Below, one piece after another: positions 1,772-51,743 of a stretch of DNA of 64,000 nt. Location of the stretch: NCBI GenBank assembly GCA_010015805.1, contig ML978134.1, positions 682,001 through 746,000 on the forward strand, in the 5' to 3' direction. The notes beneath the pieces are model-generated. The model made no database searches. It worked only from the letters and a program-made list of their open reading frames with translations, and was not told where the DNA came from. The DNA is from Rhizodiscina lignyota (taxonomy: Eukaryota). Positions within the stretch are counted from its first letter, which is position 1; the number at the start of each line of letters is the position of its first letter. A program made the position numbers and the translations under genes.

Positions 1772-3460
1772 ATGACATCTGTTACTCCACAGTCTCCACC
1801 ATCAGGCTCCGGAACAACAGAATTGCAGTACAACCTCCACCATCTTGTCGCGCACAACGCTACGACGCCACCTTACGACCATCCTCCTGACGCAAAATAT
1901 CTACGATCACACCCAGCATCATCCCAGTTCAGTTCGCCACAACCAGCCGAAATGTCTGTCGTGCAGGATCCGTACCTGACGCCGGGGTATGGACAGTACC
2001 CTGAATTGCATGGGGATGGTGATGTGGGGCTTGGAATCCAATACGTGAGACCCTCCTCCTTTTTTGGTTCTGCGTTCAGCGCAGGCGCAATGTAACGGAA
2101 TTAATGTGCTGACGGAAATAATGCAGGACGCATATGGCGCCCCAGGTCCTGCGTATTACGATGGTGGATATTCCCACTCCAGCTCTCCGGTAAGCTCTAA
2201 TAGAAAATACGCAGAAGGCTCTTCAGAACTAACCTCTTCTCGTCGAAGTATATTCAAGCATTGCCGGCCACCCCTCATTCCAACCACAGCGATGCTGGTG
2301 TCCGTACGCGCAGTGGCCGCCGCGTAGGTCGGGAGTCATCGCCTTCGGGACACAAGTCCAGTGCAGTCGATCGAAAGCGCTCACCCAAGCCGTCGAAGAA
2401 GTCCAAAGCTTCGAAGAGTGACAAGACTAAAGCTCCCAAACTCACGCAGCCCCTGAGCCTCCTGACGAAAGACATGGAGGCTCCAGTCAAGGACATGGAT
2501 GCGTGGGTCAACCGATCAGCTTCAGTTCGACGCAAAGAAGTCGAAGACCGGAAAGGCTATATCACGCGGCCGATGAATAGCTTCATGCTGTATCGTTCCG
2601 CCTACGCCGAGAGGACCAAGCAATGGGGCCTCCATAACAACCACCAGGTGGTGTCCAGCATGGCGGGAGAGTCGTGGCCGCTTGAGCCGCCGGAGGTCCG
2701 AGACCACTACAATGAACTGGCCAAGCTTGAACGCGCGAACCATCAGGCTGCGCATCCGGATTACAAGTTCAGCCCCAGCAAGACCAGCACCAGCCGGAAG
2801 AGAAGAATCGGAAGCGAAGACGCGGATGAGGATGACGAGCCGAGTGATTTCGATGATCCAGATGCGGAATGGGGTGCGGGCCGCAGAAATCGAGGCAAAA
2901 AGCAGAGGACCGACCTCAGCGTGCACTCGCCCTTTCCGCAAGCCGATGCCAGAGCAATCGGAATGTGGGAAGCACACTCGGACGGCAAGCCACTGCCGCA
3001 AGCCATCAGCGCAGATCCCTACGCGCAGTACTATCAAGCAGGCCTGTATCCCCAATACGCTATGTCAATGATGGAGGATATGACAGCACGCCGCTTGTCG
3101 AATCAGGGCATGCGGTACGCCGTCGCGTCTCCGCTCATGAGTCAGTCTCTGCTGGGCCTGCCGGGTGGGCAGCACCACGAGCAGTACCACGGGTTACCCC
3201 AAGCTCCGCATGGCATCGCAACTCCGCCGCCTTCGTCGCAGCTCGATCCAGCTCTGATGGGCTATGCAGTGCAGCCAACGTATATCGATGGCATAGACTA
3301 TGCGCCCTTCTCAGGCACCGAACAAGGTTCGCAAATCCCGTCGGATTTCCTGGGTACTGTGCAAGATGAGTGGCAGGTCGATCCGGCACTTGCGCCGCTG
3401 GAGACGGGAACTGAGTTTGAGAAGTGGATGGACGAGGAGATACAGCAGGGGAGTGCTTAG
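1772..3460 (+). CDS. HMG-box transcription factor (MATA_HMG / Ste11-like class)
   Basis: HMG box 'ITRPMNSFMLYRSAYAERTK...VSSMAGESWPLEPPEVRDHYNELAKLERANHQAAHPDYKFSP' followed by a basic NLS-like tract. Introns 2045-2126 and 2190-2248 (GT..AG with branch sites) join three ORFs in frame. Confidence 0.9.
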
Positions 3461-12737: not shown

Positions 12738-14769
12738 TCAAATAATCTGCACCGTTCTCCACCCCCACCCTCCACTCTCACAATCGTCTAGTGCATGATG
12801 TTCTATAATGAAACCAACTCCAACTCTTCTATAACATCCGGCTACCGAAGGCCGAAGAATCAAACAATAAGCGCTAGGCTGTCCTTGCCTGCTGCGCGGT
12901 ACAACTCGACCGAACCTGTGTCTCTTCATTAACAGACACACTGCGGGCGTATTCGCATTTCTTTCCTCAGCAAGATCGAAGATAATGGTGAGTTTCGTGT
13001 CCTCGCTCAGCGTTACCTTTATTTCACAGTCCTTGACTCTCAGCCCGTCACCGAGAATCTTCACCGTGTCGACTTTGCGTCCTTGATCAAACACAATCTC
13101 CTGGCAGAGCGCATCTAAGGTTATATTCCCGCCTAGAACCGGAACTGTGGAGTCATCTACGCTCGCGCTCTTCAATGTCACAAGCTCTTCGACGTCGGAC
13201 CCCTCATGTCGCCATCTGTGAGTTTCTACAGTGCCATCATACGCAGCCCAGCTCCAAGATGGAGTTCCGGAACCCTCCAAGGCGACGAACCCATTCATCT
13301 CACTCTTCGAGATATCGGCGTAAACTACTAGACTCCGGCGCCAGAGTAGGCCATTGACGATATCGCTTTTCCATAGTCCCGCGAGATACGTGTCCCCTGT
13401 CAGTCTGCGGACTTCCTGGGCAATAGCCGAGATCGCGAGGAGTTTGTCGGTCGCCGGATAAGTCAATTGCTTCCTGGAATACTCGTCTACGAGGTGGTAC
13501 CAATTTGACTTGCGGATTAAAGACTGCACTTCATTGGTCGACTTTCCCTTGCTTGTACGCCTGCTTGCCATTATCTGCTGTTGTCCATGATAAAGAGTCT
13601 GGACCTGGGGTTTAAACGCCCCGATTATCGAGTCCTCGCGACGCCATCCCTTTCGGCAGCTCCATATCATGTTATTGACGCCATAGTACAGTATTCTCCT
13701 CGATAGTTGTAACTCTTGGAAGACCCAGGCTCTTCGGTTCAGGGGGGCATTTTGAATCTCGTCTTCGAAAGACTGGACCCTTTTCCGAAGGTAGAGATTG
13801 AATGGAGGCTCGCCCAACTGAACGTAATGCAGCCCGGCTTGCCTCTCGCGAAGGAACTCTTCCTGGGAATTGGTGGACGACGGGCCTGCTATAGTAAGAT
13901 AGCCATTTGCAAAGATCCCAGCCATCCTGCTCAGCTCCGTTTTCAAATCTCCTGGCGAATCTTGGATAACACAGAGAGAGTCAATCCACAGGTAGCGAAT
14001 GCCCAAAGCTTGGGCCACTTGTACCGCATTTCGAAACGTTGGACTGAGCGATGAGATTGGAACACCTTGCTGCATTAGCGCAAGAGTGTCTCCGGTGGTT
14101 GTCGTTCTTTCCACCTGGCCCCAGCAGTGGCTGAGGGTAGCATATTTGCCCCTCATGTCTGCCACCATACAAGAGTCAATCAGACACACTGTCCCGTTTC
14201 CATCAGTAGGAAAGACGTCTAGAAGCCTAGATGGTAAGAGACTGTGTTCCGAACTGCCGCAGAGTGTATGGGACGTCCCGCATTCTTCGATCCAGGCTTT
14301 CGCCATCTCCACCGAGGACTCTGACAACGGATGTGCTGGAACGCCGTACCACATGGTCCACGTACCACAGTCCGCACCGGGCATATCTTCAGGGGTTAGT
14401 ATGTTATTGCCTCTACACAGGGTTCACATCGATCGTACCTCGCATGGTGAAGAACTCCAGATTTACTTTCAATAGGCTTTTAGATTCCCAACCTTGAGGA
14501 TTAAGATATACATAGGCGCCACCGCCCTCCACCCCACCTCCCCTCCACCACCTAAGATACACAGGCGCTGCGTTTACAGTGGCTAATTCATACTTGTGAA
14601 ACTCCGCCTTCGACTCCAGGTAATACGTAAGAAGGGCACAGCATCGGCAGCCTGCTTTCGCTGACGCCTTCATCTGCTTGAACGACGATTTGAACGGATC
14701 GAGGAACGTCTGATATTTCCCCGTCGAGGGTTCTGGAACGCATATTGTCTTGCACGATTCGCAGAGCAT
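12738..14769 (-). CDS. HET-domain (heterokaryon incompatibility family) protein
   Basis: Motifs 'YATLSHCWG', 'IRYLWIDSLCVIQD', 'PLNRRAWVFQE', 'YLAGLW', 'PSWSWAA'. N-terminal MLCESC exon joined in frame through intron 14387-14438. Confidence 0.92.
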
Positions 14770-35898: not shown

Positions 35899-36684
35899 TC
35901 AAGTCAACTTCTGCAGGTATCCCTGCGCAATAAGCCTCTCCACGTCACCCTGGCGAACGTAGAATTGGCTGTTTTTGCTCAATGTAATGGATCTGCAGCT
36001 CTTTATTAGCGTGAGAACCGTTTGACGCCATATCATGAAACAATTGGCATGAAAATAACGTACCCATATTCCGTCTGTATCTCCCCAGCGTCTTTCAGCA
36101 CCCTTACATCAATGAACAAATCTTTCGGCGGCTCCAGGCTTCCCGTCAAATCGATGTCCGTCCACTGGCCCTTATAAGCAGCAAGCAGATCTCCATACCG
36201 CCGCACATACTCCTCCTCTTCCGGACTCAGATTATTTCCACTTTCTCCTTCAGCACCAAGTGCAGCTCCTGCTCCTGACCCGCTCTGCTCTGCTTCGTCA
36301 CCACCTCCAGTTCCTTCTAAGACGTCAACCCCTGCCCAGCACTCCTCCTCCAATTTGTCTGTCCTTACGCGATGGTACGCTAGTAAGCATCTCTTGTTCC
36401 GGCGCATGGCAAGATGGTTTACGAGCAGCGCACACGCTGTGGCCGGATCGGAGGACGGGTCAAACGCGCCATTGAATGGTGCAAGCAGCGTCGAAACTTC
36501 TTTGTCGAGTGAGCGCACCTCTCGAGTCACACCGCGTACAGTGTCGGTGTGGTATGGCGGGAGATGCGCGAGAGATTGCGTGCGTTTCGCGTGCTGGGCC
36601 TGGAGGCATTCCATATTAGCTGGGGTCGGGGAATGGGGTAAAAGGATGCTGGCTCACCAGCTTCTGCCCCAATTCGCCGTACAT
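35899..36684 (-). CDS. PSF1: GINS complex subunit Psf1
   Basis: MYGELGQKL start, 'RRNKRCLLAYHRVR', 'DLTGSLEPPKDLFIDVRVLKDAGEIQTEYG', last exon SITLSKNSQFYVRQGDVERLIAQGYLQKLT*; two introns. Confidence 0.95.
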
Positions 36685-36760
36685 CTTGATGGTGTGGAGG
36701 GTTTGATAGAGGCAGTGGGGAGCAACAGAGTCGCGACTAGAGTTAAAGCATACAGTAAGG

Positions 36761-36805
36761 GAAGACGCGACCCCGCGACAAGGATCCGCGTCAAGCGCGG
36801 AAACT
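36761..36805. promoter_or_regulatory. MCB-like (ACGCG/CGCG) cluster upstream of PSF1
   Basis: GACGCGA, CCGCGA, CCGCGTC and GCGCGGAAA lie about 80-120 bp upstream of a replication gene, as expected for MBF-type G1/S regulation. Confidence 0.45.
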
Positions 36806-36841
36806 TCCGCCGAGCGACAGGGGTACTCTATCGTAGAGCAC

Positions 36842-37075
36842 CACGCGGGTGACAAAATAGTCGAGCCCGCTTTAATTGAACGGTTGTTATAAGAACAAGT
36901 TTTACTCTTCAGCACAAGCGAGAGCATCTCTAAAAGCTTGATTAAATATATGCTAGAGCGTATTTATCTAAAACGCGCAGCGTTAGTATGTATAATCTAT
37001 ATTAACTAGCGAGGGTATACACCCTTGCGGTTCAACACATTATAGCCATAACTCAACTTTTTTGTCACCCACTTA
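36842..37075 (+). mobile_element. Non-autonomous TIR element, 5-bp TSD family, copy 1
   Basis: CACGCGGGTGACAAAATAGTCGAG ... CTCAACTTTTTTGTCACCCACTTA; exact TSD AGCAC/AGCAC. Confidence 0.9.
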
Positions 37076-37303
37076 AGCACATATAAGCCCTGACAAGAAG
37101 GCTTCATGGTACAGATATTTTATGTTGTTCCAATATGTCGGCGGAGCTTCAAGCTCCGCACGTCGCCGTGGCATTTTGCGGGAGCCATTGAAGAGGGGTA
37201 ATGAAGTGGTTAGTCTGTACAACCCTTCAAACTCTCATGCAATTAACTAGCCTTTTCTTTGTAGGGCATTTCGTAGACAGAGACGTCCTCCAGCTCAATC
37301 ACT

Positions 37304-38505
37304 ATGACAGACATCAAACCTTTCAAAGTTGATATACCCCAAGCAGAAGTCGACCGACTATATCAAAAGCTCAGAGACACCAGAGTACCAACTCAGGACA
37401 TTGTGCCGGGAGCAGGGAGCGATTATGGCTTCACGACTGAATGGGCGACAAATTTGTATAATTACTGGCTAAATACATACTCCTGGTCCAAGGCACAAGA
37501 TGAAATGAATCAATGGCCGCACTTCACGACGGAGATTGAACATTTGAACGTTCATTTTATCCACCAAAAGTCTGAAGACCCCAATGCCATTCCCATTCTA
37601 CTGGTGCACGGATGGCCGGGCTCCTTCCATGAGTTCAGCGAAGTCATCAACCCACTCAGCGAAAAGCAGACTGGGCTACCGAGCTTCCATTGCGTCGTCC
37701 CAAGCCTTCCCGGTTACTGTTGGAGCTCTGGACCACCTCGTAGATGGACAATGAAGGACACCGCACGGGTGATGCATGCGCTGATGCGAAAGCTAGGATA
37801 CCATCAGTACTGCGTCCAGGCAGGAGACTGGGGCTCGCCAGTTGCCAGGGAGCTCGGGGCGAAGTACTCTGCGCACTGCAAGGTGATACATCTCAATTAC
37901 TGTCCCGGAGCTCTTCCAGAAGGCATAGAGGCCACAGAACGGGAGCTGGCGGTACAGGCGAAGGGGGTGGACTGGAGGACAGCGCATATCGGATATGCAG
38001 TACTGATGAGAACACGGCCGCACTGTGTTGGTTGGATGTTGCAAGATAATCCTGTCGGCCTGCTTGCATTCGTCGGTGAAAAGGTAAACCCTCCGTTGCA
38101 ACTATAGGTTGAGTGATCCCTGCTGATGTACCGCTTTAGTATGATGAAGCTGCAAATCCACAGATGCAAAGCAAGGATTCATGGAAGGACCACACCCTCA
38201 CCACAGTCTGTCTATACTATTTCAGCAACTGCATCATGACCAGTTGCCTGGCGTATTACGAGAACCCTCGACATGATCAGTTTGCAGCAGAAGCATTGAA
38301 GGAAGAGAATCTCATCAAAAGCCCATTTGGCTATACCAGCATGTGGTACGACACTGCTCCAAATAGCCAGCGAGCTGTGGAGCGCACAGGTAACCTCGTA
38401 TTTTATCGAGAGCGAGATTATGCGGGCCATTTTGCATGCCTCGAGGATCCAACTGGAATCGTCGAAGATGTTCGAGAGGTAGTTAGCAAGCACTGGCATA
38501 ATTAG
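37304..38505 (+). CDS. Epoxide hydrolase (EHN + alpha/beta hydrolase)
   Basis: 'IKPFKVDIP', 'LLVHGWPGSF', nucleophile 'QAGDWG', 'GHFACLE'; intron 38084-38139. Confidence 0.93.
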
Positions 38506-38619
38506 AAGAATAGAGCACGACTCAGTCCCTCTGACGTGGCAGATCTCCCGTCCCCACTTCAGGAACTCGACGCTGAGAAATGTGAATTCTGGTGAATCTT
38601 CGGCCTCGTGGGGATAATT

Positions 38620-39530
38620 AAAGAGCATTATCTGCAGACGTCAGGGGTACCGTCGAAGTTTGCTCAAGTGCTCGCGGTAGCGACGAACTTTGACATATGG
38701 TATTGGCAAGAGTTGGCCAGGGACGTTTGAAAGCACAGTCAGATTACAGAAAATTGGGAACTCTTCGAGGCAAAGTACGGTTGATGATGAGTGCCAAGAG
38801 GGATACTGAAGATACTCAGAGCCGAAGTCTGCATAGAAATCGTCCAATGACCAAATCAATTGGAGAGAACTGACAGCATCAATTGATCAGAAGTACTTGA
38901 CGAACGTGAGGAAAGATGGGCGAGGAGAGCGGAAGTGAGGCCTCCGAAAGATACAGCTAGCTCGTTAATAATGAAATATTTCAATGCTTGGCGCCAAGCG
39001 CCAAAGCTCATCTTCAGCTCTCAGCTTTTGGAGTTCCAGGTTACGAACTATTAACGATGCTCACGAGGCCAGAAAAAGCAAGAATAATCAAACGCACTCC
39101 GAAGAAAATACAATCAAAGCTTCAGACGTAATATCGTGTCCGTCGAAGACGGAGACTGCCTCATCGTAGAGTATTACCAACTTTATCACACTTGCTATTT
39201 CATCACTTCCAAGACTCGAGGAAATGAGGTGTAGCCTCTAAGACGGACGTTTCAACCATGCCCCAAAGCATGTGTAACCAAACTTTCAGAGATGCTCTCG
39301 CGAAATTCGAAGAGTAATACTTGTATGCATTACAGCGCTACAGTATACAGGCTGGCACTCCCAGCCGCACCACTCGACTCGGCCTCACCACCCGTCAGCA
39401 CCACGAGCAATCGCCCACACCTTACATGAATCATGCTCAAACAAGAGACAATGTCCATACCAAGCCCATTACTTGCTTAAATAGACATGCGCAGGACGTT
39501 ATTCATTTTCGAAAGGCCAAACTTTGACTG
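38620..39530 (+). pseudogene. Decayed ORF relic of unknown family, partly homologous to the core of the 5-bp-TSD element
   Basis: Long reading frame broken by scattered stops and a frameshift. Segment 39279-39324 matches the reverse complement of MITE copy 1 at 36/46 nt. Confidence 0.4.
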
Positions 39531-39570
39531 GTGGTCTCAATCTCGCCAACAACCACTTACAGTATCCTCC

Positions 39571-39779
39571 CACAAGGGTGACAAAATAGTTGAGTCCTAT
39601 GAGGTTTCGTCTTCAACGCAAGCGAGAGTATCTCTGAAAAGTCGATAAATTATATACCGGAGTTCGTTTATCTAAAACACGCAGCTTCAGTATGTATAAT
39701 TTATGTTATTAATCGAGGATATATATCCTCGTAGTTCTATATATTACAGCCACGACTCAACTATTCTATCACCCACTTA
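39571..39779 (+). mobile_element. Non-autonomous TIR element, 5-bp TSD family, copy 2 (internally deleted)
   Basis: CACAAGGGTGACAAAATAGTTGAGTC ... GACTCAACTATTCTATCACCCACTTA; TSD CCTCC/CCTTC. Confidence 0.9.
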
Positions 39780-40584
39780 CCTTCGTAGCCTCGAGCCTCA
39801 AAGTCACGTTGCATGGCACGTCAAGGAAGCTTTTTTCCCACGGAGCTCATACTGGAAAGAGGTTAGCTAACGATTGTCTGGGGTACTGCTCGTCAAGCCT
39901 ACCAATCGAAAAGGACAAGTTCTCTGCAGCGTCAATTGTGACGGAACTGTGATGTACCAATAACAGCTCGTAGTGTTGACTACACTTCGAAAGTCTGTCC
40001 AGGCACGCTTTTATCCGCGAATTTTGATTGGACGAGAATACGGTGACAAGACCGCCAGGCTTGCCTCGGCCGGCCTAGCTCAGCTGATCCATGTCTCTCC
40101 ATGCAGAAAATATGTATTGCCTTGGAAAGCTCCATTGGATGAGCACTGACGAAAGACATACAGTTCCCTTCTGGTGAGGCTCGATACGAAGTAGCACGCA
40201 ATTGACATACAACGACAGCATTGCTCTATTTATATTTAAGCACTTTGCAGGTACTTCCGACCGTGGCGCTTTTACCCAATCAAGAAGGCCGAAACAATCA
40301 GTTCCTCGTCCCCGTACGAACACCAGTACACATGGCAGTCATGTCTTGAGAAAGAAGGTAGTGTATTTAGCATACACCACAGCATCTCTCTGTCTTCACT
40401 CTTTTTACCCTCTCTATTTATTCCACAATCTCGCAATGCGGGGCCACTTGAGAAGTTCATAGACTCTTATCCGTTGTCACCGATGTTCAAACTGCTTTTA
40501 CACATGGACGTATAAAGTATCTTAGTGTGCATTTATCAGCATCCACTGGCATCCCTTGGCTTCCACTTCTGTCTTCCGTTCATC

Positions 40585-41954
40585 ATGCAATGGATCACTT
40601 CCCTGATAGCCTTTGCCGGCCTTGTGGGCTCAGCTGTTGCTTCTCCCATTGCGAGTCCTGAGAAACGTACCAGCTCTTTCCGTGTGAAGCAGGTTCAGCG
40701 CGGCGCAAAGATACGATCCGGAGCTGTTGAGATGGAGAGAGTTTTCGCTAAGTTTACAACCGCTGTACCTAGTAATATACGTGTAGCCGCCGCTGCTGCC
40801 GTATCGGGATCGGCCACTACCACACCAGAGCGATTTGATAGTGAATTTCTTACGCCTGTGATGGTCGGTGGCACTACGCTCATGCTGAATATTGATACTG
40901 GCTCTTCAGACCTGTGTGTTTCACCAATCTGCTCTGAATTCTGACCAATTCAACATTCTGACTCTTTATATAGTTGGGTCTTCTCGAATCAGTTGCCAGC
41001 AAGTGAAAGCACAGGTCATTCTGTCTACACTGTTAATGCAGCGAAGAAACTGGTGGGAGATACCTTTTCAGTTTCCTTTGGAGATGGCAGCTCGGCTTCC
41101 GGAAACGTATTCGCAGATACCGTAGTTGTTGGTATGCAAATAGTGTCGATTTCTCTACCTCTATGTACTAACAAAGTTACAATAGGTGGTGTGACTGCCA
41201 CCCGCCAGGCTGTTGAAGCCGCTACTTCAGTGTCCGCATCATTCACCCAGGATACTAATGTCGACGGGTTGATGGGACTTGCATTCAGCCCACTCAATAC
41301 TGTTCAACCGCAACAGCAGCGAACGTTCTTCGATAACGTCAAGTCGACACTGGACACCGCATTGTTCGCCGCCGATCTCATATCTGGCGGGCCAGGTGAA
41401 TATGACTTCGGAGTAAAGCCCCGCTTAGTTGAATCCCTTTTAGACAGACAATGCTAACTTCCGCGAAGTTCATTGATACGGCCAAGTTCACGGGCACGCT
41501 TGACTTCTCCCCGGTCGATAATAGCCTCGGCCTCTGGGAATTCACCACTAGTGGCTACGCTATTGGCACCACACGTCATGCAACAGCGATCAACGGTATT
41601 GCAGACACTGGTACAACTCTGCTCTTGCTTCCTAGTGCTATTGTCACCGCATACTATGCCCAGGTTAAAGGCATACAAAATAGTACACAATTTGGAGGCT
41701 TCATCTTCCCTTGCAATGCAATCCTTCCGACGTTCTCTCTTATCATCGATAGCAAACTGCACACCGTCCCAAGCGACTTCCTCAACTTTGCTCCAGTTGA
41801 CGCGGCGAATACGAACTGCTTCGGAGGAATTCAATCAGCCGCGGGTCTCCCTTTCTCAATCTTTGGCGGCATATTCTTGAAGAGCCAGTACGCTGTCTTT
41901 GACATGTCGCAAGCTACGCCAAGGATAGGCTTCGGCCAGCAGACAAATACTTGA
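40585..41954 (+). CDS. Secreted aspartic protease (A1, aspergillopepsin/penicillopepsin-like)
   Basis: Signal peptide and pro-region; two catalytic motifs 'IDTGSSDL' and 'IADTGTTL'; 'DGLMGLAF', 'CFGGIQ', '[15 protein letters not shown]'; three introns. Confidence 0.93.
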
Positions 41955-42031
41955 GTCCTGGGAATGTCTACTGTCACTCTGTTCATGCTGTTGATCGGAC
42001 CAGGTAGCTGCATGCGGAGCAAGTTACCAGG

Positions 42032-42276
42032 TAAGTGGGTGACAAAATTAGTTGAGTCGTGGCTGCAATATATAGAACTACGAGGATATATATCTTCGAT
42101 AATTAATATAAGTTATATACGCTGAAGCTGCGTGTTTTAGATAAAGGGACTCTAGTATATAATTTATCGACCTTTCAGAGATGCTCTCGCTAGCGTTGAA
42201 GAGGAAACCTCGCCTCTGCAGGCTCTGCTAAACACGTTCAAACTTCACAGGACTCGACCATTTTGTCACCCTCGTG
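42032..42276 (-). mobile_element. Non-autonomous TIR element, 5-bp TSD family, copy 3
   Basis: TAAGTGGGTGACAAAATTAGTTGAGTC ... GACTCGACCATTTTGTCACCCTCGTG; flanks CCAGG/CCGAG (both derivable from CCGGG by one G->A change). Confidence 0.88.
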
Positions 42277-42838
42277 CCGAGACTCTGGAGTTACTTTATA
42301 ACAATACCGCCTCTTTGACGACCTTTGGCTCAGCGACCGTTGCAAGCATTTGAATGACAACGAGAGAAACCGGCTCATACATCATACATAAGCCACGTTT
42401 TCGCCGGCTAGATAGAAATATCATTTACAAAGATGCCGAAGAATATCTTGCCTGATCCGGTTTAAACCTAAATGGGTCTAATCTTGAGAAGCGGCTTATC
42501 TCACCAAATTTCACCTCACATCCACATCCACAATAGGCACCTCAACCCTCGTCATTTTTCTATTCGTATGGAGTATCATTGAGGAAATTGTCTACGAAGG
42601 ACCTCTGATGTTGCTTGCACAAGTTTCATTGACAATTGGAACATCCATCAAACACAAGTGGCAGTACCCCCTCAAATTGACATAAATGGCATTACCAATA
42701 GTAAGAGTATTTGCATCTCGCAGTGAGTTTGTATCGGACGCAGTATCATCTCGTTACGAATAGTTTTTCTTGTTTCCATCAACCCAGCCCTGATTTGTCT
42801 CCTTCCGAGTAAAGTCTTCCTCTTTCATAGACCCGCAA

Positions 42839-44516
42839 TCAGCGGGTGTACGTAAAGAATACGTTTTCCCTGTCAGTAAGATCAAGGAAGGCAACCCTCT
42901 CTCGCTCACGGTTGACGTCCTCTTCCGTCCAACCGTTATCGGCAATAAGCCTCTCAAGCTCGGCCTTCTTCTGTTTGTTCCAGCGGACGTTGACATACGC
43001 CATCGCAACACAACACAGCATCATTACTACAGTCAGAACGACAATAGCCGCCTTTCCAGGGATGTATCCGGGCGCATTCTGGGGCAGGAAGATGTAGGTA
43101 CCAACAACAGATCCGACGCCGAAGGTGAAGAGGGTGAAAGAGTTCACAGTGACCTTCTTGGTGTGGCCACCCGTGTTACTCGCGTTCCAGGCGTAGCAAA
43201 GCGGGAACCCTGGAGCAGACAGATTCTGGAACAGCTGAGCGAACTGGAGCACGCCCTTTTGGCCCGAGTACTAAGCCACGAAATTAGCATCTGACCCGTG
43301 ATAATCATTTCGAGCAAAGAACGTGCCTGCATCGTGGTCATAATTATCATTCCAATCAGCGTAGGGAGCGTGAAGAGGAGGATCAGAGTCATGCGGTCGT
43401 TAATGCGGTCGGAGAGCCAGCCAACGGCGACCACAGCGACGCCACCGATCGCGGCACGAGGCATGTCCAGCAGCAGGCTCTGACGAGATGTCCACCCGAA
43501 ACTTTTGGTGATAATATTGCTGAACGCAGAGTTACCGCCGTTAGGAATCCCTATACACATGATAATTAAGAACATAATCCAGGTGCGGATATCTTTGAAG
43601 GTTTCGGTAATTTGGTATCTCTTTATCTTCGAATTGTGGGTGCCGGCTTGGTCAAGGCGGATACGTTCCAGCGCAGCGATTTTCTCTTCCTTGGACAAGA
43701 AAGTAGCGGTATTAGGCGAGTCAGGAAGGAAGAGGATGACAAGAATGCCGTTGGTGATGGCGAGTGCGCCAAGGATGAGGTACAAGAGTTTCCATGGCTG
43801 GATGGCTCCCTGGTAGAATGTGGCACCGTATGCGACAGCACCACCGACGACCGATGTGCTAAGATTTCCCGCATAGAACCAGCCGATGCGAGTCGCGCGC
43901 TCGTTTTGCTTGTACCACATGCTGACGATGAGGATAAGACTTGGAGAGACACATGCCTCCAGCATACCGAGGAAGAATCGAAGCGCGTAGAAGCCCGAGA
44001 AATTACGGCAGACAGCGTGGAGCATGACAAGGCCGCCCCATAGAATGATATGTGTGCCCAGATACTTGGCGATTGGGAACTTCTGGCCGATGTACTGCGT
44101 GGGAAACATCCAGACGAGAAACCCCATATAAAATGCCTGGGCAACGTCGTTGTAAAGGATGCCAGTAACGGGGAAATCCATGATCGATGCGTAACTTAAG
44201 ATATTCTTGTCCAGAAACTGGGTAAAGTACACAAAGATGAGGAGTGGCATGACACGAAGGTCCTAGTGAGAAGCAGTCAGCCAGCATGTCGACCTTCACA
44301 GCTCAGTTTGAGATGGCTTACAATCTTCCGCCGGAGACGGGAATAGTACTTGTCGTCGAACTGGTATCCATGGTGGGCACCCGCCAGCTTGAGAGCATCA
44401 TCGCCTTCCGCGGAGCTAACTTCATCTTTATCAAATGCAGCAGCATCCGTGTCGGCTGTAGGCCCAACCTCAGCCTCGACGGGCTCGATGGTCTTCTCAA
44501 CATCGGAAGGGGCCAT
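42839..44516 (-). CDS. MFS transporter, allantoate/DAL5-like (ACS family)
   Basis: 'RLRRKID..VMPL..YFTQFLDK', 'LRFFLGMLEACVSP..SMWYK..E...R', 'LPDSP..A.FL', 'IPNGG', 'SNTGGHTKK'; two introns. Confidence 0.9.
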
Positions 44517-44629
44517 ATTGAAAGATGAATCTTGACACAGCAGGAGAGTAGAAGCGGAGGAGTGACGTCTCAAACGTTATGAGAGATCAATACACTTACT
44601 AGTCCTGAGGAATTGCCTTCGTTCCGGCG

Positions 44630-45060
44630 CAACTTATATCTCTTAGAGCCATGTAGAATCTGTCAAGCCTAAATAATCCGTCTGATAAGAAGACATGATT
44701 AATCGAATGGATAGTCGGATTGTCCGTTATCATCCTAGGAAAGAAGTCGGGATAGTAGCCGATGTTGCAGACAGAAATGAATTGATCTGAGGTCTAACCC
44801 AAGAAAGCAAGATAAGTCATTGTGCGGGGATATAGGGGAGCTAGCATCCGGTTATTCTCAGTATCTTCGGTGGCGATAACCTAGCTACTGCAAGATATTT
44901 GCCTTCAGAGATCGTAAAAGGAAGCTGAATATGTCCACGAGATAAAACTAGATAAGGGCCACGCGACTGACTGCAAGCGACTCCCTCGACGTCTATTTGT
45001 GAAAACAACGAGTAGATAAAGAATTGACCACTGACGACCGAAATGCAGGATTTTTATCTT
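44630..45060. promoter_or_regulatory. GATA-site cluster (AreA/Nit2-type nitrogen regulation) upstream of the allantoate-type permease
   Basis: About a dozen GATA/TATC cores in about 430 bp, many as GATAA (e.g. 44684, 44811, 44875, 44941, 44951, 45015). Confidence 0.65.
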
Positions 45061-45389
45061 CAATCATAGTAAAAGGGTACATACAAGCTGTGATCACGTG
45101 AATGTAGTCAGGTGCGCAGTGGAGTCCACAACAGGCGACCAGGTTTTTGCCCCCTTTTCGTTCCTTTCTGGAGTTTCATATGTACACAAAATTGATCCTA
45201 ACTTTTCATCTTTGTCAGAAGCTTCATAGCCACCCATAGAGATTCACAAGGAAGCACTCATTTCACACCTGCTGTAGGTGTAGTCCTCAGCGCATCTCCT
45301 TTCTTACATACGTCATTTTACTGAGTTACAAATTTACACTTTCTGGTTCGCAGAATAGGACCCTACAAATGCGACCTTTAGAAGTCCAG

Positions 45390-46642
45390 CTACATTTCAA
45401 TCAAAACTTTAAGAGTCTTTTGAGTTGCGGCATTTTGGAAGTTTGAATATGCTGCGATCATGTCACTGAATTTGAAATCTGATCCAGGTCAGCACGATCA
45501 TAATAAATGATGTTCAGAGCTTACGGTGTGTGATCAGTTTCTCAGCTGGTAGTTTCCCTGCGACAACCATTTTGAGAAGCGTCGGAGTGGTGACAGCGTC
45601 CACTAAACGAGTTGTGATAGCTATTGATAGTGAGCAGTGTAATCAGTCACACTTAGCTTCATGACTTACAAACGTTCTTGGCCCACAACGTTTCCAAGTG
45701 GAGCTCGACACTGCTGCCATGCACGCCGACGTTTGCGATAACTCCGCCTGGTGCAACTAGCTGTTGACACTGCTCGAAAGTCGCGGGAATGCCAACGGCC
45801 TCGATGATGGTGTCACATCCTTTGCCATCTGTGAGCTCGTCGACGACTTTCTGTGCAGTATTCGGCTCAGCAATGTATTGCACGCCCAATTCTTGCGCTA
45901 CTTTGAGACGGTTCTGGTCCGGATCGATCATGAGGACCCAAGACGGAGAGTAGAGTTGAGAGGTCAAGAAGGCGGCCAAGCCCACAGGCCCCGCTCCAAT
46001 AATGGCGACTGTACTTCCCGGTTGCACCTTGCCATTGAGAACACCACATTCAAAACCAGTTGGGAATATATCAGACAGCATCACTAGAGTTTTCGGGTCT
46101 ACTCCCTGGGGGACTTGGTAGAGCGACGAGTCTGCATGAGGAATTCGTACGTACTCAGCTTGCGTGCCGTCGATTGTGTGGCCAAGGATCCAGCCGCCGG
46201 TTGTACAATGCGAGCTCATTCCCCTTCTGCAATATTCGCATGTGCCGCAGGATGATATACATGAGAGCAATACTTTGTCGCCAACTTTGAACTTGCTCAC
46301 GCCGGAACCGGCCTCTTCAATCGTACCCACTCCCTCGTGACCAAGAGTGGTTCCAGGCGTCGTTTCAGGAACGTCTCCTTTGATAATGTGCAGGTCCGTC
46401 CCACAGATGGTGGTATAGTCGACCTTGACGATGGCATCCGTTGGATTGACTAACTTTGGCTGAGGCTTATCCACGATGGAGATGTCTGATTTCCCGTTGA
46501 AAACAAGAGCCTTCATGGTGCTGATATACCGTAGGTTGAAATGTCTGTTTGCGTTGAATGCCCTGGCAGCAGGAATACGGCTTTGACTGACTTGTTTTGG
46601 CAATGTACAACGAATGAGAGGGAATATGCGAGATGAGAACAT
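45390..46642 (-). CDS. Zinc-dependent alcohol dehydrogenase (MDR family) with possible mitochondrial presequence
   Basis: 'ICGTDLHI', 'GHEGVG', structural Zn 'CGTCEYCRRG..SHC', 'GAGPVG'; two 3' introns, ends ...TLKVLIEM*. In-frame ATGs at 46642 and 46516. Confidence 0.9.
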
Positions 46643-47340
46643 GTTGTGAGGATCAAGGTAAAGAAGAGAACCGGGTGAAGGGATTGGGATTGAAATACTG
46701 TACGGAGGTACCAGCTGAGATCGTCGTATCATTCTTACATGGTTAATCACGCCACGCTAAAATACCTTATGGTGGAGCTACATTCCACTCGGTCACGCCA
46801 CCCGAAGGCCGAAGGTCTCGGAATGAAAAGGACGACAAGGCCAAGCTCCCAGAACGGACCATTATGATAGCTCATTCGAGTCCTTCTCTTCCTCATTTCG
46901 CGAATACAATTGCTGCTCGACTGGAATTTTGAAAGTTTCGCGCGGATGGAAGTCTCGATGAGCGTCGAGCTGACAGAGCGGGGTCATCCCACCAAACAGC
47001 GCGGGGCTCTACGACCTCATCTCTTCTGCGGAGCCGCAGTTCGTGAGTGCTGGCTACCTGACCACAGAAGTTTTGAGTAATACTAATAGAGTCAGTAGTG
47101 AGATTTACGTGTTGCGTTTTCAATTACATATCCATCTAACTCCGATTTCGCCTTTCTTACGTGTTCACAATCTCACCAATTCAGACTTTTGTATTGTGGT
47201 AGTCCAGAGTTTCTCTTCTGGGTTCCCTTTCAGGATGACTGCTATTTTTTTCTCCGTTCTAGTCACAACATTGTCATTTTGTACTCAGGGACCTCCTCCA
47301 CTTACCAGACATAAGCACTGCTACATAGGATCTAACCTGG

Positions 47341-47574
47341 CAAGTGGGTAACAAATAAGTTGAGTCGAGGTGATAATATATCAAACCACGAGGATGTATA
47401 TCCTCGTTAGTTAATATAGGTTATATATACTGAAGCTATACAGTTTTAATAAATATACTCTAGTGTTTATTTAATCGAGGTTTCAGAGATGCTCTCGCAT
47501 ATGCTGAAGAATAAAACTTGTCCTTACTATAGCCGTTCAGGTCAATCGGGCTCAACTATTTTGTCACCCGCGTG
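47341..47574 (-). mobile_element. Non-autonomous TIR element, 5-bp TSD family, copy 4
   Basis: CAAGTGGGTAACAAATAAGTTGAGTC ... GCTCAACTATTTTGTCACCCGCGTG; TSD CCTGG/CCTAG. Confidence 0.9.
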
Positions 47575-47757
47575 CCTAGCACGAAGAAGCTGTAGGTCTC
47601 TCATTTCAAAGCTCTCGTTCATCCTGAAGGCTGTGTGAATATCTAGTTTTAAGCAGCCCACGCGACCAAAAGTCCATGAGCACTTTCATAAGACCCAAAG
47701 ACAACTTGCTGTGGGGACCCAGATCTAACAGAAGTCCTTCACGGATCTCTCATTCTT

Positions 47758-48237
47758 TCACTTCGGCGCTCTCTGCGCCTCCGTCAGCTCTCCACCGACA
47801 GCCTCCACGCCTGCCTGACAGACCTCCGTGTCTTGCTCTACGGTGCCGCCAGAAATGCCAACCGCTCCAATGAAGAAGCCATCTACGAACAACGGCAAGC
47901 CACCCCCGAACACAGCAAGGCCATTATTCGACTGTTCAATGCCGTATAGTCCTCCGCCAGGCTCGCTAGTTTGCAGCAATTGTGCGGAGGTGAAGGCACC
48001 ATTGAACAAGGCCACAGTCCTGGCTTTCTTTATTGCGATATCAATGCTACCCTGCCATGCGTTGTCGGTTCTAAGGAAGGCAACAAGAGTGGCGCTCGGG
48101 TCGACGACAGCAATGTTCACTGGTGTAACCTTCGCGGACTTATCGGCCGCTGCTGCAATGATTTTCAAGGCTTGGATTTGGTCGATGAAGTGACGTTCTG
48201 CTGGCGATGAGCCTAGACCATTGTGACTGGCACTCAT
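47758..48237 (-). CDS. GlcG/HbpS-like heme-binding protein (DUF336)
   Basis: 'VNIAVVDPSATLVAFLRTDNA..GSIDIAIKKARTV', 'FGGGLPL..DG..IGAVGISGG..EQD'. Confidence 0.9.
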   Translation of the reverse strand: MSASHNGLGSSPAERHFIDQIQALKIIAAAADKSAKVTPVNIAVVDPSATLVAFLRTDNAWQGSIDIAIKKARTVALFNGAFTSAQLLQTSEPGGGLYGIEQSNNGLAVFGGGLPLFVDGFFIGAVGISGGTVEQDTEVCQAGVEAVGGELTEAQRAPK

Positions 48238-48913
48238 GGCTGTGAGACTACGGTGAGGTAGGTTTACGAGCTTATGGTAAATGTTAGCATAACATCTTCA
48301 GAGTCTCCCGCCACACCGTGGGCACGAAGCGGAGAGCAGTCCTTGGGGCTTTTGTACATGTAGAATACTTTGTCGATAATCGCGATAACTTCTCCTCTGA
48401 ATGTTTGAGAATGTACTCCAATTGCTGTTCTCTTCGTCCTGCTTTTGGTTTGCAGATGCTAACCTGGTAGAAGGATTTCTCCTAATCCATAAGGACAGCA
48501 ATAGGGAGATGAGGTCATCTCGAGCGGGGAAGACCTAATGGTGGTCAGGAATACCAAGGCAAACCATATAATGGCGAAATGCCTGAGATCCAGGGTGGTC
48601 GCTATCCGATGAATCGATATTTGGAAGTGGTTGACATGATTCGGCGGGTAGCTGCCCTTCATTACTCATCCAATACCGAGTTTCTCATTATGATTGAAAC
48701 CGTTGCGTCGGATGTGGGCCTTGATGAATTTTCCGGACGAACCGCCCTTACTTCGGCGTGACGAGGATGGTTCTAGAGAGGGGGGATTAAGCGTGCTGCT
48801 GCGTGTTGGAAAGTTTTAAGCACAGATCTGTACTCCGTATCTCAAGCTGCGAAAGTGGCTTGGCACGCTATCCTAGGATAGTAGCCTTAGTTAAAGTAAC
48901 TCCAGAGTCTCGG

Positions 48914-49148
48914 CACGAGGGTGGCAAAATAGTCGAGTCCTGTGAAGTTTGGACGTATTTAGTAGAAACGAGATTTTCTCTTCAATACTAGCGAGAGCAT
49001 CTCTGAAAGGTTAATAACTTATATACTAGAGTTCGTTTATCTAGAACATACAGCTTTAGCGTATATCACTTATATTAACTATCGAGGATATACATCCTCA
49101 TAGTTCTATATTGTGCAACTACGACTCAACTATTTTGTCACCCACTTG
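48914..49148 (+). mobile_element. Non-autonomous TIR element, 5-bp TSD family, copy 5
   Basis: CACGAGGGTGGCAAAATAGTCGAGTC ... GACTCAACTATTTTGTCACCCACTTG; exact TSD CTCGG/CTCGG. Confidence 0.92.
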
Positions 49149-50044
49149 CTCGGCAGCGACAGAGGCACCCGGAGATCAACCAATTCTAGGGGCTAAGCGT
49201 ACCTAATATATGGTTACTATCCCACCCAAACTATTATATATATAATTCTTTTTTCCTTCTTTTTCCAACTTCAATGACCTCGTTCCTGTTCTAATTTCCC
49301 CCTATATTGAATACTTCTTTTCTCTATCTAAGTAAGGCCAGGCTACAGGAGTCTATTTACAAACAGTATTGTGTAAGAAGGGTTACGCAAATGATGAGCG
49401 AGTAGGCAACTAAGTGATCCTAATAGAGGAACCAGTTGGTTAATCGGTCGAGGTGGACTCTAAAGAGCCGATTCATTTGCTTGAAAATAAGTAAATTCCT
49501 AAAGAATGTCGGACCCTTTGGAGAGATTTGAAATATTATGCTCTACGTGGAGACGGAGGATAAAACAGACTGTTGTATCTGGGTCACAATGGCCAATAAT
49601 TGCAGTGTTCCTGTAGAAAACATAGTTATCTAATAGAACTTCTGAGTGTAGGAGCAGCTTGCAAAAATGAGAGAGCCAATGACAAAGTATGAAGATATCG
49701 TGACAAATATACCGGTGCCGGTTTGGACTAGCGCATCGCATCGCGGAGTTTGGGCCAACTTCGCCGCCAAAGCGATCGGCTTCCTTCTCATCACGACAAT
49801 TACGCTACAACCTTTCTCCAGTCCGCAATCGCGCATTGCAGCTCATACACGCGACCGGAGATGAGAGTGGAAATTATCCTTCTCTCCCAGCTTTTCGAGA
49901 AGGGCGCAGCAAGCAAGCAGCGATGAGCAGTCACATCATCCCTGGTTTACCCATCAAGGTGAACCACCGCAGTCAGTAAGTTTCCAGCTTCCATACTCTC
50001 CACCACAGCCACGCAAGACTCTTCGTATGGCATTGTGAAACGCT

Positions 50045-51743
50045 ATGGACCTCTCCGACGAGTCCGATCCCTTTTACTTTCTGATTGAGGATCGCAATCG
50101 GCCTCCCTTCGATCCCTTTACGCTCGAGTACATATTCACACCTGCTCCCTTCTCTCTATCAAAGCTCATACTGACATGCGTGTTGTAACAGGCAAGACCT
50201 ATTCTCCGCCAATTATGACACAATACCCGCTCCTCAGCCCTCAAAAGGCCCTTCTGCAGTACCTCCTTCGAATGCCGACGCCGGCGCCTCGGCGCACGGT
50301 GTTCGCGAAGACATAGAGCAGCCCCGAGACGACTTTATGAATATGGGAAACGACAGCTTTTGGCAGCAAGACCTCGATACTTGCACATTTCACTGCTGCG
50401 ATGACCCATGTCCACCGCTCACAGTTGCGTGCACTGACGCCGACTGCAACATACCCAATCGATGCGATGATGTCTGTGGGACATGCAATGACACTGGTTG
50501 CGAAGCAGAGCCGTGCGAAGATACATCATGCCCACTATCTTTCCAGCACTTCGATGTATGCTTCCAGCCCGCTTGCGCTCCATCGCCAGAGGCCGGGCCT
50601 TGCACTTCCGCTCCGTGCAACCTTGACAACTGTGGTGGAACTTTCATAACGGATACTTGTCCGGAGCCCTCACACCAAGGCTGGGATCCGGACTGCCCCA
50701 ATAGTACGCTATGTCCTGATGTGCTGCATAATTATGGCACTCAGCCATGGTCCAACTTTCACCAGGAACACCCAACCGCAGCAGATCCAATCAACTGGAT
50801 AACCCCGGAAGAACTTCATCAAGATTGGCACTATGATACTTCACTTCCATCATTAAGTCCAGTAGCTTCTTCTCTAAGTGCGCCTACTCCTTCTTTTGAA
50901 CTTCCGGTTGCCGACCAGATGGAACCTCAGCATGTTCGAGATGGGCGAGTACCAAGATCGGCTGGAATTGTGCCACGAAAGCGAGACGAACCCTTTCATC
51001 ACAAGCCAAAGCGAATGCGGACTGAACCATCCGTACGAGATGAATCCACACCAGAGTCGACATTACATGGAAGTATCAGTGCATCACGGCAGAGTACGTT
51101 CACGCCTACTCCACTTCATAACGGAGAGTCTCCTGCCCCACAGCAACCTTCGCTCTGTCACTGGGTCCTCAACCCCTTGGATCCACCCTCGCAACAACAA
51201 CTGTGTTCTTTCACAGCGGCATCTGCAGACGATCTCCATAACCACATACTCAGAGCTCACACTCAGCACCTCAACGCTACGAAGGGCTTCGTCTGTCACT
51301 GGCACGGCTGCCCACGTTTCGCATCTGCCTCCTACGGCCAAAAGTCGAAGCTCAATCGACACGTTCAGACTCACTCACACTTCCTCCCGTACGCCTGCTC
51401 TTTCACAGGTACGCCTTACTTCTGCACCAAACGATTCAGCACCAACGACCAGCGTCGCAACCATGAGGCGACGCACACAGATGACAGGAAATATCAGTGC
51501 TCTGTCTGCGGAGCACGGTTCAAGCACGCCACGAGCTTAAGTACGCACAAGTTCACGCACACTGGAGAGAAGCCGTATAAGTGTTGGATATGCGGTAAAG
51601 CGGAAGGCGATCCGAGTAACAGGAGCAAGCATGTCAAGAAGGAACATCCAGGATGGCCAAGAGTCCGGCCAACCGATTGGGATGACGCCAGGGTTGAGCA
51701 GGAACGGCAGCTGAGAGGTATGACGGGCGTAAAGGAGTCATGA
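50045..51743 (+). CDS. C2H2 zinc-finger transcription factor, Zap1/ZafA-like, with Cys-rich N-terminus
   Basis: Five C2H2 fingers: the first two of tandem CxW type, plus 'QKSKLNRHVQTH' and an 'HTGEKPY' linker. A short first exon from ATG 50045 is joined in frame via an intron at about 50128-50191. Confidence 0.8.

Follow-up and report, generated by a model that had tools for sequence, protein, structure and literature searches.

Transposons of the CACTA-Mirage-Chapaev-Transib (CMCT) clade share, according to the parts of PMC12730594 that treat them, 5'-CA..TG-3' ends and target-site duplications (TSDs) of 2-5 bp. For one member of the clade, Transib, the relevant sections of PMC1131882 present 5-bp TSDs as unique to the superfamily and its targets as GC-rich; the Transib terminal inverted repeat (TIR) is given there as 38 bp long, starting with CACAATG, which is separated by 23 bp (or 12 bp) of spacer from an A-rich nonamer, and showing a perfectly conserved CAC, and non-autonomous Transib families of the mosquito are described with palindromic 5-bp targets. 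Here we describe a family of short repeats in a stretch of 64,000 nucleotides of the Dothideomycete Rhizodiscina lignyota (assembly GCA_010015805.1, contig ML978134.1, positions 682,001 to 746,000 of the forward strand; hereafter the window, to which all coordinates refer). Its five copies in the window have imperfect inverted ends, begin with CA and are flanked by 5-bp GC-rich duplications. We conclude that they belong to a genuine family of MITEs (miniature inverted-repeat transposable elements), present in many copies in the genome, and discuss below which class of transposase may be responsible for its spread.

The window was searched for repeat families over 36000-50000, and the copies were delimited by reading of the sequence, by BLAST against the 64-kb window and by MAFFT alignment of the copies with their flanks. 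Five copies of 209-245 bp were obtained, in both orientations and spanning 36842-49148 (12.3 kb): c1 (36842-37075, + strand, 234 bp), c2 (39571-39779, + strand, 209 bp, with an internal deletion of about 35 bp), c3 (42032-42276, - strand, 245 bp), c4 (47341-47574, - strand, 234 bp) and c5 (48914-49148, + strand, 235 bp). Pairwise identities define a subfamily A, consisting of c1 and c4 (79.1%), and a subfamily B, consisting of c2, c3 and c5 (c2-c3 89.0%, c3-c5 87.2%, c2-c5 80.9%), while pairs taken across the two are 72.2-76.1% identical. The number, size and orientation of the copies and their division into these two groups had been proposed in a first-pass annotation made from the letters alone; BLAST and alignment bear out the former, and the higher identity within groups than across them bears out the latter. 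Beyond the five copies, BLAST against the whole window recovered only one internal fragment of 50 bp (39275-39324, - strand), which belongs to the conserved core and is 78-86% identical to element positions ~54-103. It sits 247 bp upstream of c2, no TIR was found near it, and it probably represents what is left of a sixth copy after extensive deletion.

The flanks of the copies provide the clearest trace of insertion. In element orientation, the pentamers on the two sides are AGCAC/AGCAC for c1 (36837-36841 and 37076-37080), CCTCC/CCTTC for c2, CTCGG/CCTGG for c3, CTAGG/CCAGG for c4 and CTCGG/CTCGG for c5; read on the + strand, the flanks of the two inverted copies are CCAGG (42027-42031) and CCGAG (42277-42281) for c3, and CCTGG (47336-47340) and CCTAG (47575-47579) for c4. 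Altogether 21 of 25 positions are identical (5, 4, 3, 4 and 5 in c1 to c5), whereas 5-mer pairs drawn 200,000 times at the same spacing from random sites of the window averaged 6.30 (sd 2.18) and never exceeded 18. Other duplication lengths between 2 and 10, measured at the same boundaries, stay at chance level (3/10 for k=2, 5/20 for k=4, 9/30 for k=6 and 6/40 for k=8). All four mismatches, among them the single ones of c2 and c4, are C/T transitions. At the five sites the duplicated letters are also richer in G+C (36/50) than the 100-nt flanks (46.6%) and the region (47.9%). The pattern C[C/T]NGG, which was picked after the data had been seen, fits three of the five target sites and matches 0.6% of the pentamers of the region.

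Each copy had been credited by the first-pass annotation with a duplication of its own. The pentamers listed there are exact and the excess of matches is confined to 5 bp; the independence of the five pairs, on the other hand, does not extend to c3. Its left 5-mer is not an independent TSD, because it lies inside a 22-nt flank (42277-42298, - strand) identical at 22/22 positions to the left flank of c5 (48892-48913, + strand, TSD CTCGG included). If c3 is left aside, 18 of 20 positions are still identical, against a null mean of 5.06 and a maximum of 16. The remaining flank pairs among the five copies show no similarity (local alignment scores of 9-17). Although their 22-nt left flanks are identical, the c3 and c5 elements themselves are only 87% alike. 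This arrangement suggests that one of the two was copied from the other with some of the surrounding sequence included, either through break repair that used the neighbouring copy as its template or through aberrant transposition.

Both ends of the element are conserved among copies. Read along the element, the left terminus is CACG[A/C]GGGTGACAAAATAGTYGAG, the first five letters being CACAA in c2, and the right end, as its reverse complement, reads [C/T]AAGTGGGTGACAAAA.AGTTGAG. When the core GGGTGACAAAATAGTYGAG was searched for with at most three mismatches, nine matches were found in the window against 0.03 expected from shuffles, and each of the nine falls within one of the copies c1 to c5; the remaining TIR, that at the right end of c3, carries a 1-nt insertion. 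Ungapped complementarity between the two ends amounts to 14-20 of the 24 terminal positions per copy, the lowest value being that of c3 on account of this insertion. Pairing starts at nt 6 and ends at about nt 26, which gives an inverted repeat of ~21 bp. The imperfect TIRs of ~25 bp announced for the family thus exist in all copies, with the qualification that their outermost five nucleotides are specific to each end: in every copy the left tip, CACG[A/C] or, in c2, CACAA, is unlike [C/T]AAGT on the right. The first three bases are CAC at the left end of all five copies, and CAA (two copies) or TAA (three copies) at the right end. In terms of terminal dinucleotides, CA is found at all left ends and the right end is TG in c4 and c5 and TA in c1-c3; TAAGT in the latter three copies differs from CAAGT in c4 and c5 by a single C-to-T transition (CpA to TpA).

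Inside these termini, an A-rich block, ACAAAATAG, occupies nt 11-19 of both ends. As single-stranded DNA, c5 is predicted to fold through its TIRs with an energy of -30.6 kcal/mol, compared with -17.5 +/- 3.3 kcal/mol for shuffled sequences (z = -3.96). An 18-bp palindrome, CGAGGATATATATCCTCG in its c2 version (39714-39731), lies ~50 bp from the right end. None of the five copies has lost its stem, and in c1 both partners of one pair have changed (A-T to G-C) so that the pair is preserved. The palindrome may serve as a subterminal site for protein binding or form a hairpin. Beside c4, the letters that follow the TSD CCTAG (47575-47586, TSD included) read CACGAAG and resemble the left terminus of the element, CACGAGG; this likeness is probably a coincidence.

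The family is not restricted to the 12.3-kb cluster. Of the words sampled from 39400-49300, 98% occur in a single public sequencing run (X1), represented by Logan contigs and the only run found to contain the stretch. This run is possibly the source of the window, and it is then not independent for the locus, yet it samples the rest of the genome. Alignment of its contigs to 47200-49300 at a likeness of at least 80% returned 229 contig pieces: 27 with a likeness of at least 99%, 30 between 95 and 99%, 50 between 90 and 95% and 122 below 90%. Summed word depth is 155.3 in single-copy bins and rises to 7175 in c4 (46x) and to 11142 in c5 (72x). The excess depth in the bin of the c5 left flank is about the amount that the 22-nt flank of c3 alone would contribute. 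Among the loose contig ends listed, 17 fall at the edge of c4 (6, 5 and 6 contigs at 47574, 47575 and 47576) and 11 at the edge of c5 (49148). Past these edges the agreement with the consensus is 0.42-0.49, and the other copies therefore have unrelated flanks that start at the element ends given above. The family is thus a high-copy one. Its size can be put, as an order of magnitude, at tens to roughly a hundred copies in the genome, in the range of some 50-120, a rough reading of summed contig depth, which is not the same quantity as copy number.

Some of these contigs show how copies lie with respect to one another. One of 5356 nt carries two further copies whose left ends face each other across 5072 letters, which mirrors the arrangement of c3 and c5 and may reflect a tendency to cluster. 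We considered whether this contig could represent a single long element and ruled it out: both ends are left termini that point away from the spacer, and the contig holds two separate copies. Three other contigs join a left to a right terminus on opposite strands at a distance of about 0-5 nt (47577/49150, 47577/49147 and 47574/49143), and in the first of them the element ends are exactly five letters apart. These joins correspond either to head-to-tail neighbours that share a spacer of TSD size or to some other end-to-end junction. A scan of metagenomes with the 19-nt TIR core gave nine loci, on contigs of 32-62% GC. Each was a solitary 19-mer that lacked a partner TIR and bore no resemblance to the element body, and they were rejected as chance matches.

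Substitutions among copies are dominated by transitions. They exceed transversions in every pair of the five window copies (18-40 transitions and 5-29 transversions per pair), with ratios of 2.6:1 to 5:1 within subfamilies. When the window copies were compared with other genomic copies, 77 of 100 tallied differences were transitions (A>G 24, T>C 25, G>A 17, C>T 11), which means that A/T in the window copies stands opposite G/C in other copies more often than the reverse. Of the singleton C>T or G>A changes among the window copies, 10 of 19 are in CpA context. The pattern resembles that of repeat-induced point mutation (RIP) and is not conclusive for such short elements.

The combination of inverted ends, a duplication of fixed length but with a different sequence at every site, a small uniform size in both orientations and many copies with unrelated flanks makes this a MITE family. 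The proposal put forward in the first-pass annotation, a TIR DNA transposon that is non-autonomous and makes GC-rich duplications of 5 bp, is in this way supported by the TIRs, by the TSD statistics and by the copies elsewhere in the genome. Very probably, these non-coding elements of 209-245 bp depend for their movement on a cut-and-paste transposase that acts in trans and whose gene lies in another part of the genome. A plausible scenario is that a DDE-type transposase would bind the conserved core GGGTGACAAAATAGT just inside each end and excise or copy the element, which would then be inserted into GC-rich targets, often C[C/T]NGG, whose two strands would be cut 5 bp apart. Repair at these offset cuts would yield the 5-bp duplication, and later C-to-T transitions, RIP-like or due to deamination, would blur both the copies and their duplications. 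One could instead regard the repeats as immobile, that is, as products of local segmental duplication or as a dispersed repeat with a regulatory role, the flank matches being incidental, as might be suggested by the confinement of the five copies to 12.3 kb of the 64-kb window and by the 22-nt flank common to c3 and c5. Yet the flank duplications lie far above chance and only at 5 bp, dozens of other copies have unrelated flanks beginning exactly at the element ends, and within the window no flank pair is similar save the left flanks of c3 and c5. This explanation is close to refuted, and we give it hardly any credence.

Which superfamily the transposase of this MITE family belongs to is a harder question. 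Judged from its terminal dinucleotides and the length of its TSD, the family fits best into the CMCT clade, taken broadly, given the CA..TG termini (TA at the right end of c1-c3) and a TSD inside the 2-5-bp range. This placement is plausible, at somewhat less than even chances, and the remaining probability goes to other or still undescribed transposase lineages. Within the clade, a Transib-type MITE mobilized by a RAG1-like transposase, in Transib a DDE enzyme of about 700 amino acids, would account for the 5-bp TSD, for the GC-rich and partly palindromic targets and for CAC at the left end; moreover, 20 Transib-like proteins of fungi are on record in the part of PMC9435367 concerned. Several observations weigh against the conclusions drawn here, some of them against the CMCT or Transib placement in particular. 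Mobility is deduced from structure; only five insertions can be read for TSDs, the compromised c3 among them; the estimate of copy number is rough; and neither an autonomous element nor a transposase was recognized in the 64-kb window. As for the termini, the right end is CAA or TAA, not CAC, in all five copies, where CAC is reported as perfectly conserved (PMC1131882, in its description of Transib ends). The TIR measures ~26 nt, complementarity ending there, and its A-rich block at nt 11-19 does not stand behind a 12- or 23-bp spacer as the nonamer of the heptamer-spacer-nonamer layout does. In addition, a survey of fungal genomes reports, in the section on this superfamily, no transposase with a RAG1 domain (PF12940) and names Transib as the one superfamily missing from the kingdom (PMC5751038). 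The resemblance to Transib seen by the first-pass annotation, in CAC termini and 5-bp GC-rich TSDs, consequently holds for the duplication, the targets and the CA..TG ends, and fails for the right end and for the internal layout of the TIR. On balance we consider a Transib-type element unlikely, though it is the most probable of the specific alternatives weighed here. It may be added that ACAAAATAG is found 3 bp past the terminal heptamer at both ends, reminiscent of a compressed recombination signal sequence, which we regard as a resemblance only.

A hAT lineage making 5-bp instead of 8-bp duplications (hAT5-like) had been named as another candidate, and the short, imperfect TIRs are indeed like those of many hAT elements. 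The third base of hAT 5' termini, however, is always G according to the legend of Figure S7 of PMC1131882, whereas it is C at the left and A at the right end of all five copies, so that this alternative fails on an invariant position. With 6/40 matches at k=8 an 8-bp duplication is ruled out, and hAT5 and hAT6 are placed within an animal hAT lineage in the pertinent part of PMC12730594; we hold a hAT origin to be quite improbable. Integrase-type elements, either DNA transposons of the Ginger/TDD kind or solo long terminal repeats (LTRs) of a small LTR retrotransposon, would also explain a 5-bp duplication. LTR elements and TDD-4/5 give TSDs of this length and Ginger1 is described with GC-rich CCGG targets (PMC2836005, passages on targets and TSDs), and Ginger-type integrases are reported as widespread in Dikarya (PMC5751038, in the corresponding section). 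Here, by contrast, the ends read CA...T[G/A], and none of the ten tested is of the form TG...CA or TGTNR, the latter being the Ginger terminus as given in PMC2836005. The ~21-bp inverted repeat far exceeds the few inverted bases of LTR tips, and the Pfam scan of window open reading frames (ORFs) showed no LTR-element body nearby. An integrase-type origin is therefore very improbable. Elements of the Tc1/mariner/pogo type were rejected, with 3/10 matches at k=2 and no copy out of five flanked by a TA pair. Returning to the CMCT placement, its most far-reaching form would be that a Transib/RAG1-like transposase, or an undescribed CMCT branch with 5-bp TSDs, drives the family in this Dothideomycete. 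It would act through a compact TIR made of a heptamer, 3 bp and an A-rich 9-mer, and would be the first in filamentous ascomycetes known to amplify a MITE family of ~100 copies. We consider this a speculative proposal with the odds clearly against it.

To examine the coding content of the window, all 132 ORFs of at least 110 amino acids, delimited from stop to stop, were compared with Pfam, and none of them (0/132) matched a transposase, integrase or reverse-transcriptase family. It had been stated before that no transposase gene is recognizable in the window, and the scan agrees. Rfam at gathering thresholds gave no match in the window and the tRNA scan no gene; there is therefore no sign of a short interspersed nuclear element-like or RNA-gene origin of the repeats.

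From the Pfam assignments of long ORFs, all five copies are intergenic. The first, c1, is preceded by a GINS/PSF1 gene (36033-36653, - strand), which is divergent from the epoxide hydrolase gene that follows c1 (37277 onward, + strand) and precedes the 50-bp fragment and c2. An aspartyl protease gene (+ strand, extending to 41954) separates c2 from c3, its last ORF ending 78 bp before c3. Between c3 and c4 lie an MFS transporter gene (- strand, identified by Pfam) and, next to it, a zinc-type alcohol dehydrogenase gene (45659-46756, - strand). A gene for an HbpS-like protein (47758-48297, - strand) stands between c4 and c5, and c5 is followed by a gene for a C2H2 zinc-finger protein (50175-51743, + strand). 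The copies sit in promoter sequences and 3' regions of five adjacent genes with metabolic and regulatory functions and may influence their expression. Farther away, the window contains a HET-domain (heterokaryon incompatibility) ORF of 561 amino acids (12741-14423, - strand) and an HMG-box ORF of 418 amino acids (2204-3457, + strand), both ordinary for a filamentous ascomycete. The alcohol dehydrogenase ORF matches, at 100% identity over 77% of the query, a protein assigned to R. lignyota by NCBI and UniRef. It is 68-69% identical to bacterial enzymes of Rhizobium, Luteibacter and Mesorhizobium, a level similar to that of many fungal homologues listed (61-70% in the named species), and on these protein identities an old transfer between bacteria and fungi is possible.

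MITEs are common, and to meet one in a fungus that has received little study is nothing unusual. What is distinctive in this family is a well-supported 5-bp GC-rich duplication combined with CA..TG ends, a combination ascribed, in the accounts cited above, to Transib and the CMCT clade. If the autonomous partner proved to be RAG1-like, the lineage ancestral to V(D)J recombination would have a wider host range, with an active-looking system in a fungus; if it proved to be something else, a lineage with 5-bp TSDs would be added to the fungal repertoire. Literature searches on Transib, fungi and 5-bp TSDs and on the transposable elements and MITEs of the species, the latter listing no paper that names the species, returned no description of this family, Repbase and Dfam lying outside this comparison. 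Searches of full texts with 14-nt TIR strings returned only irrelevant matches (human stem cells, microRNA decoys), and the text of a paper on Epichloe MITEs contained neither '5 bp' nor '5-bp'.

Among described fungal MITEs, those of the mimp/impala type (Tc1/mariner) are of similar size and are also found at promoter sites, and the mimp TIR bears a loose likeness to the right TIR of this family; they differ in having TA duplications, which flank none of the five copies here. The hAT5 elements, as far as their description goes, share the 5-bp TSD and short imperfect TIRs and differ by the third-base G and by their place in an animal hAT lineage. The mosquito families Transib-N1_AG and Transib-N2_AG, as portrayed in the relevant part of PMC1131882, have in common with the present family a 5-bp TSD, GC-rich and partly palindromic targets, small non-coding copies and CAC at one terminus; unlike them, the family described here has CAA or TAA at the right terminus, a TIR of ~26 nt without the heptamer-spacer-nonamer order and an ascomycete host. 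With the CMCT clade as a whole (EnSpm/CACTA, Mirage, Chapaev, Transib, Plavaka, ESTA as well as Lanisha), it shares CA..TG ends and a TSD in the 2-5-bp range. The fungal members covered in PMC12730594, EnSpm, Plavaka and ESTA, are described with 2-3-bp or TA duplications, against 5 bp here, and membership of the clade rests, in the same account, on the transposase, while our family is known from non-coding copies alone. The nearest report concerns Zymoseptoria tritici, like R. lignyota a Dothideomycete. In the part of PMC4522978 devoted to its MITEs, 2 of 13 families have TSDs of 5-6 bp, are unclassified and lie in gene-rich regions; the likeness is one of description, resting on short size, TSD length and location and not on sequence. 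We therefore file the family of R. lignyota as a new MITE family of a familiar type, closest by description to these MITEs of Z. tritici.

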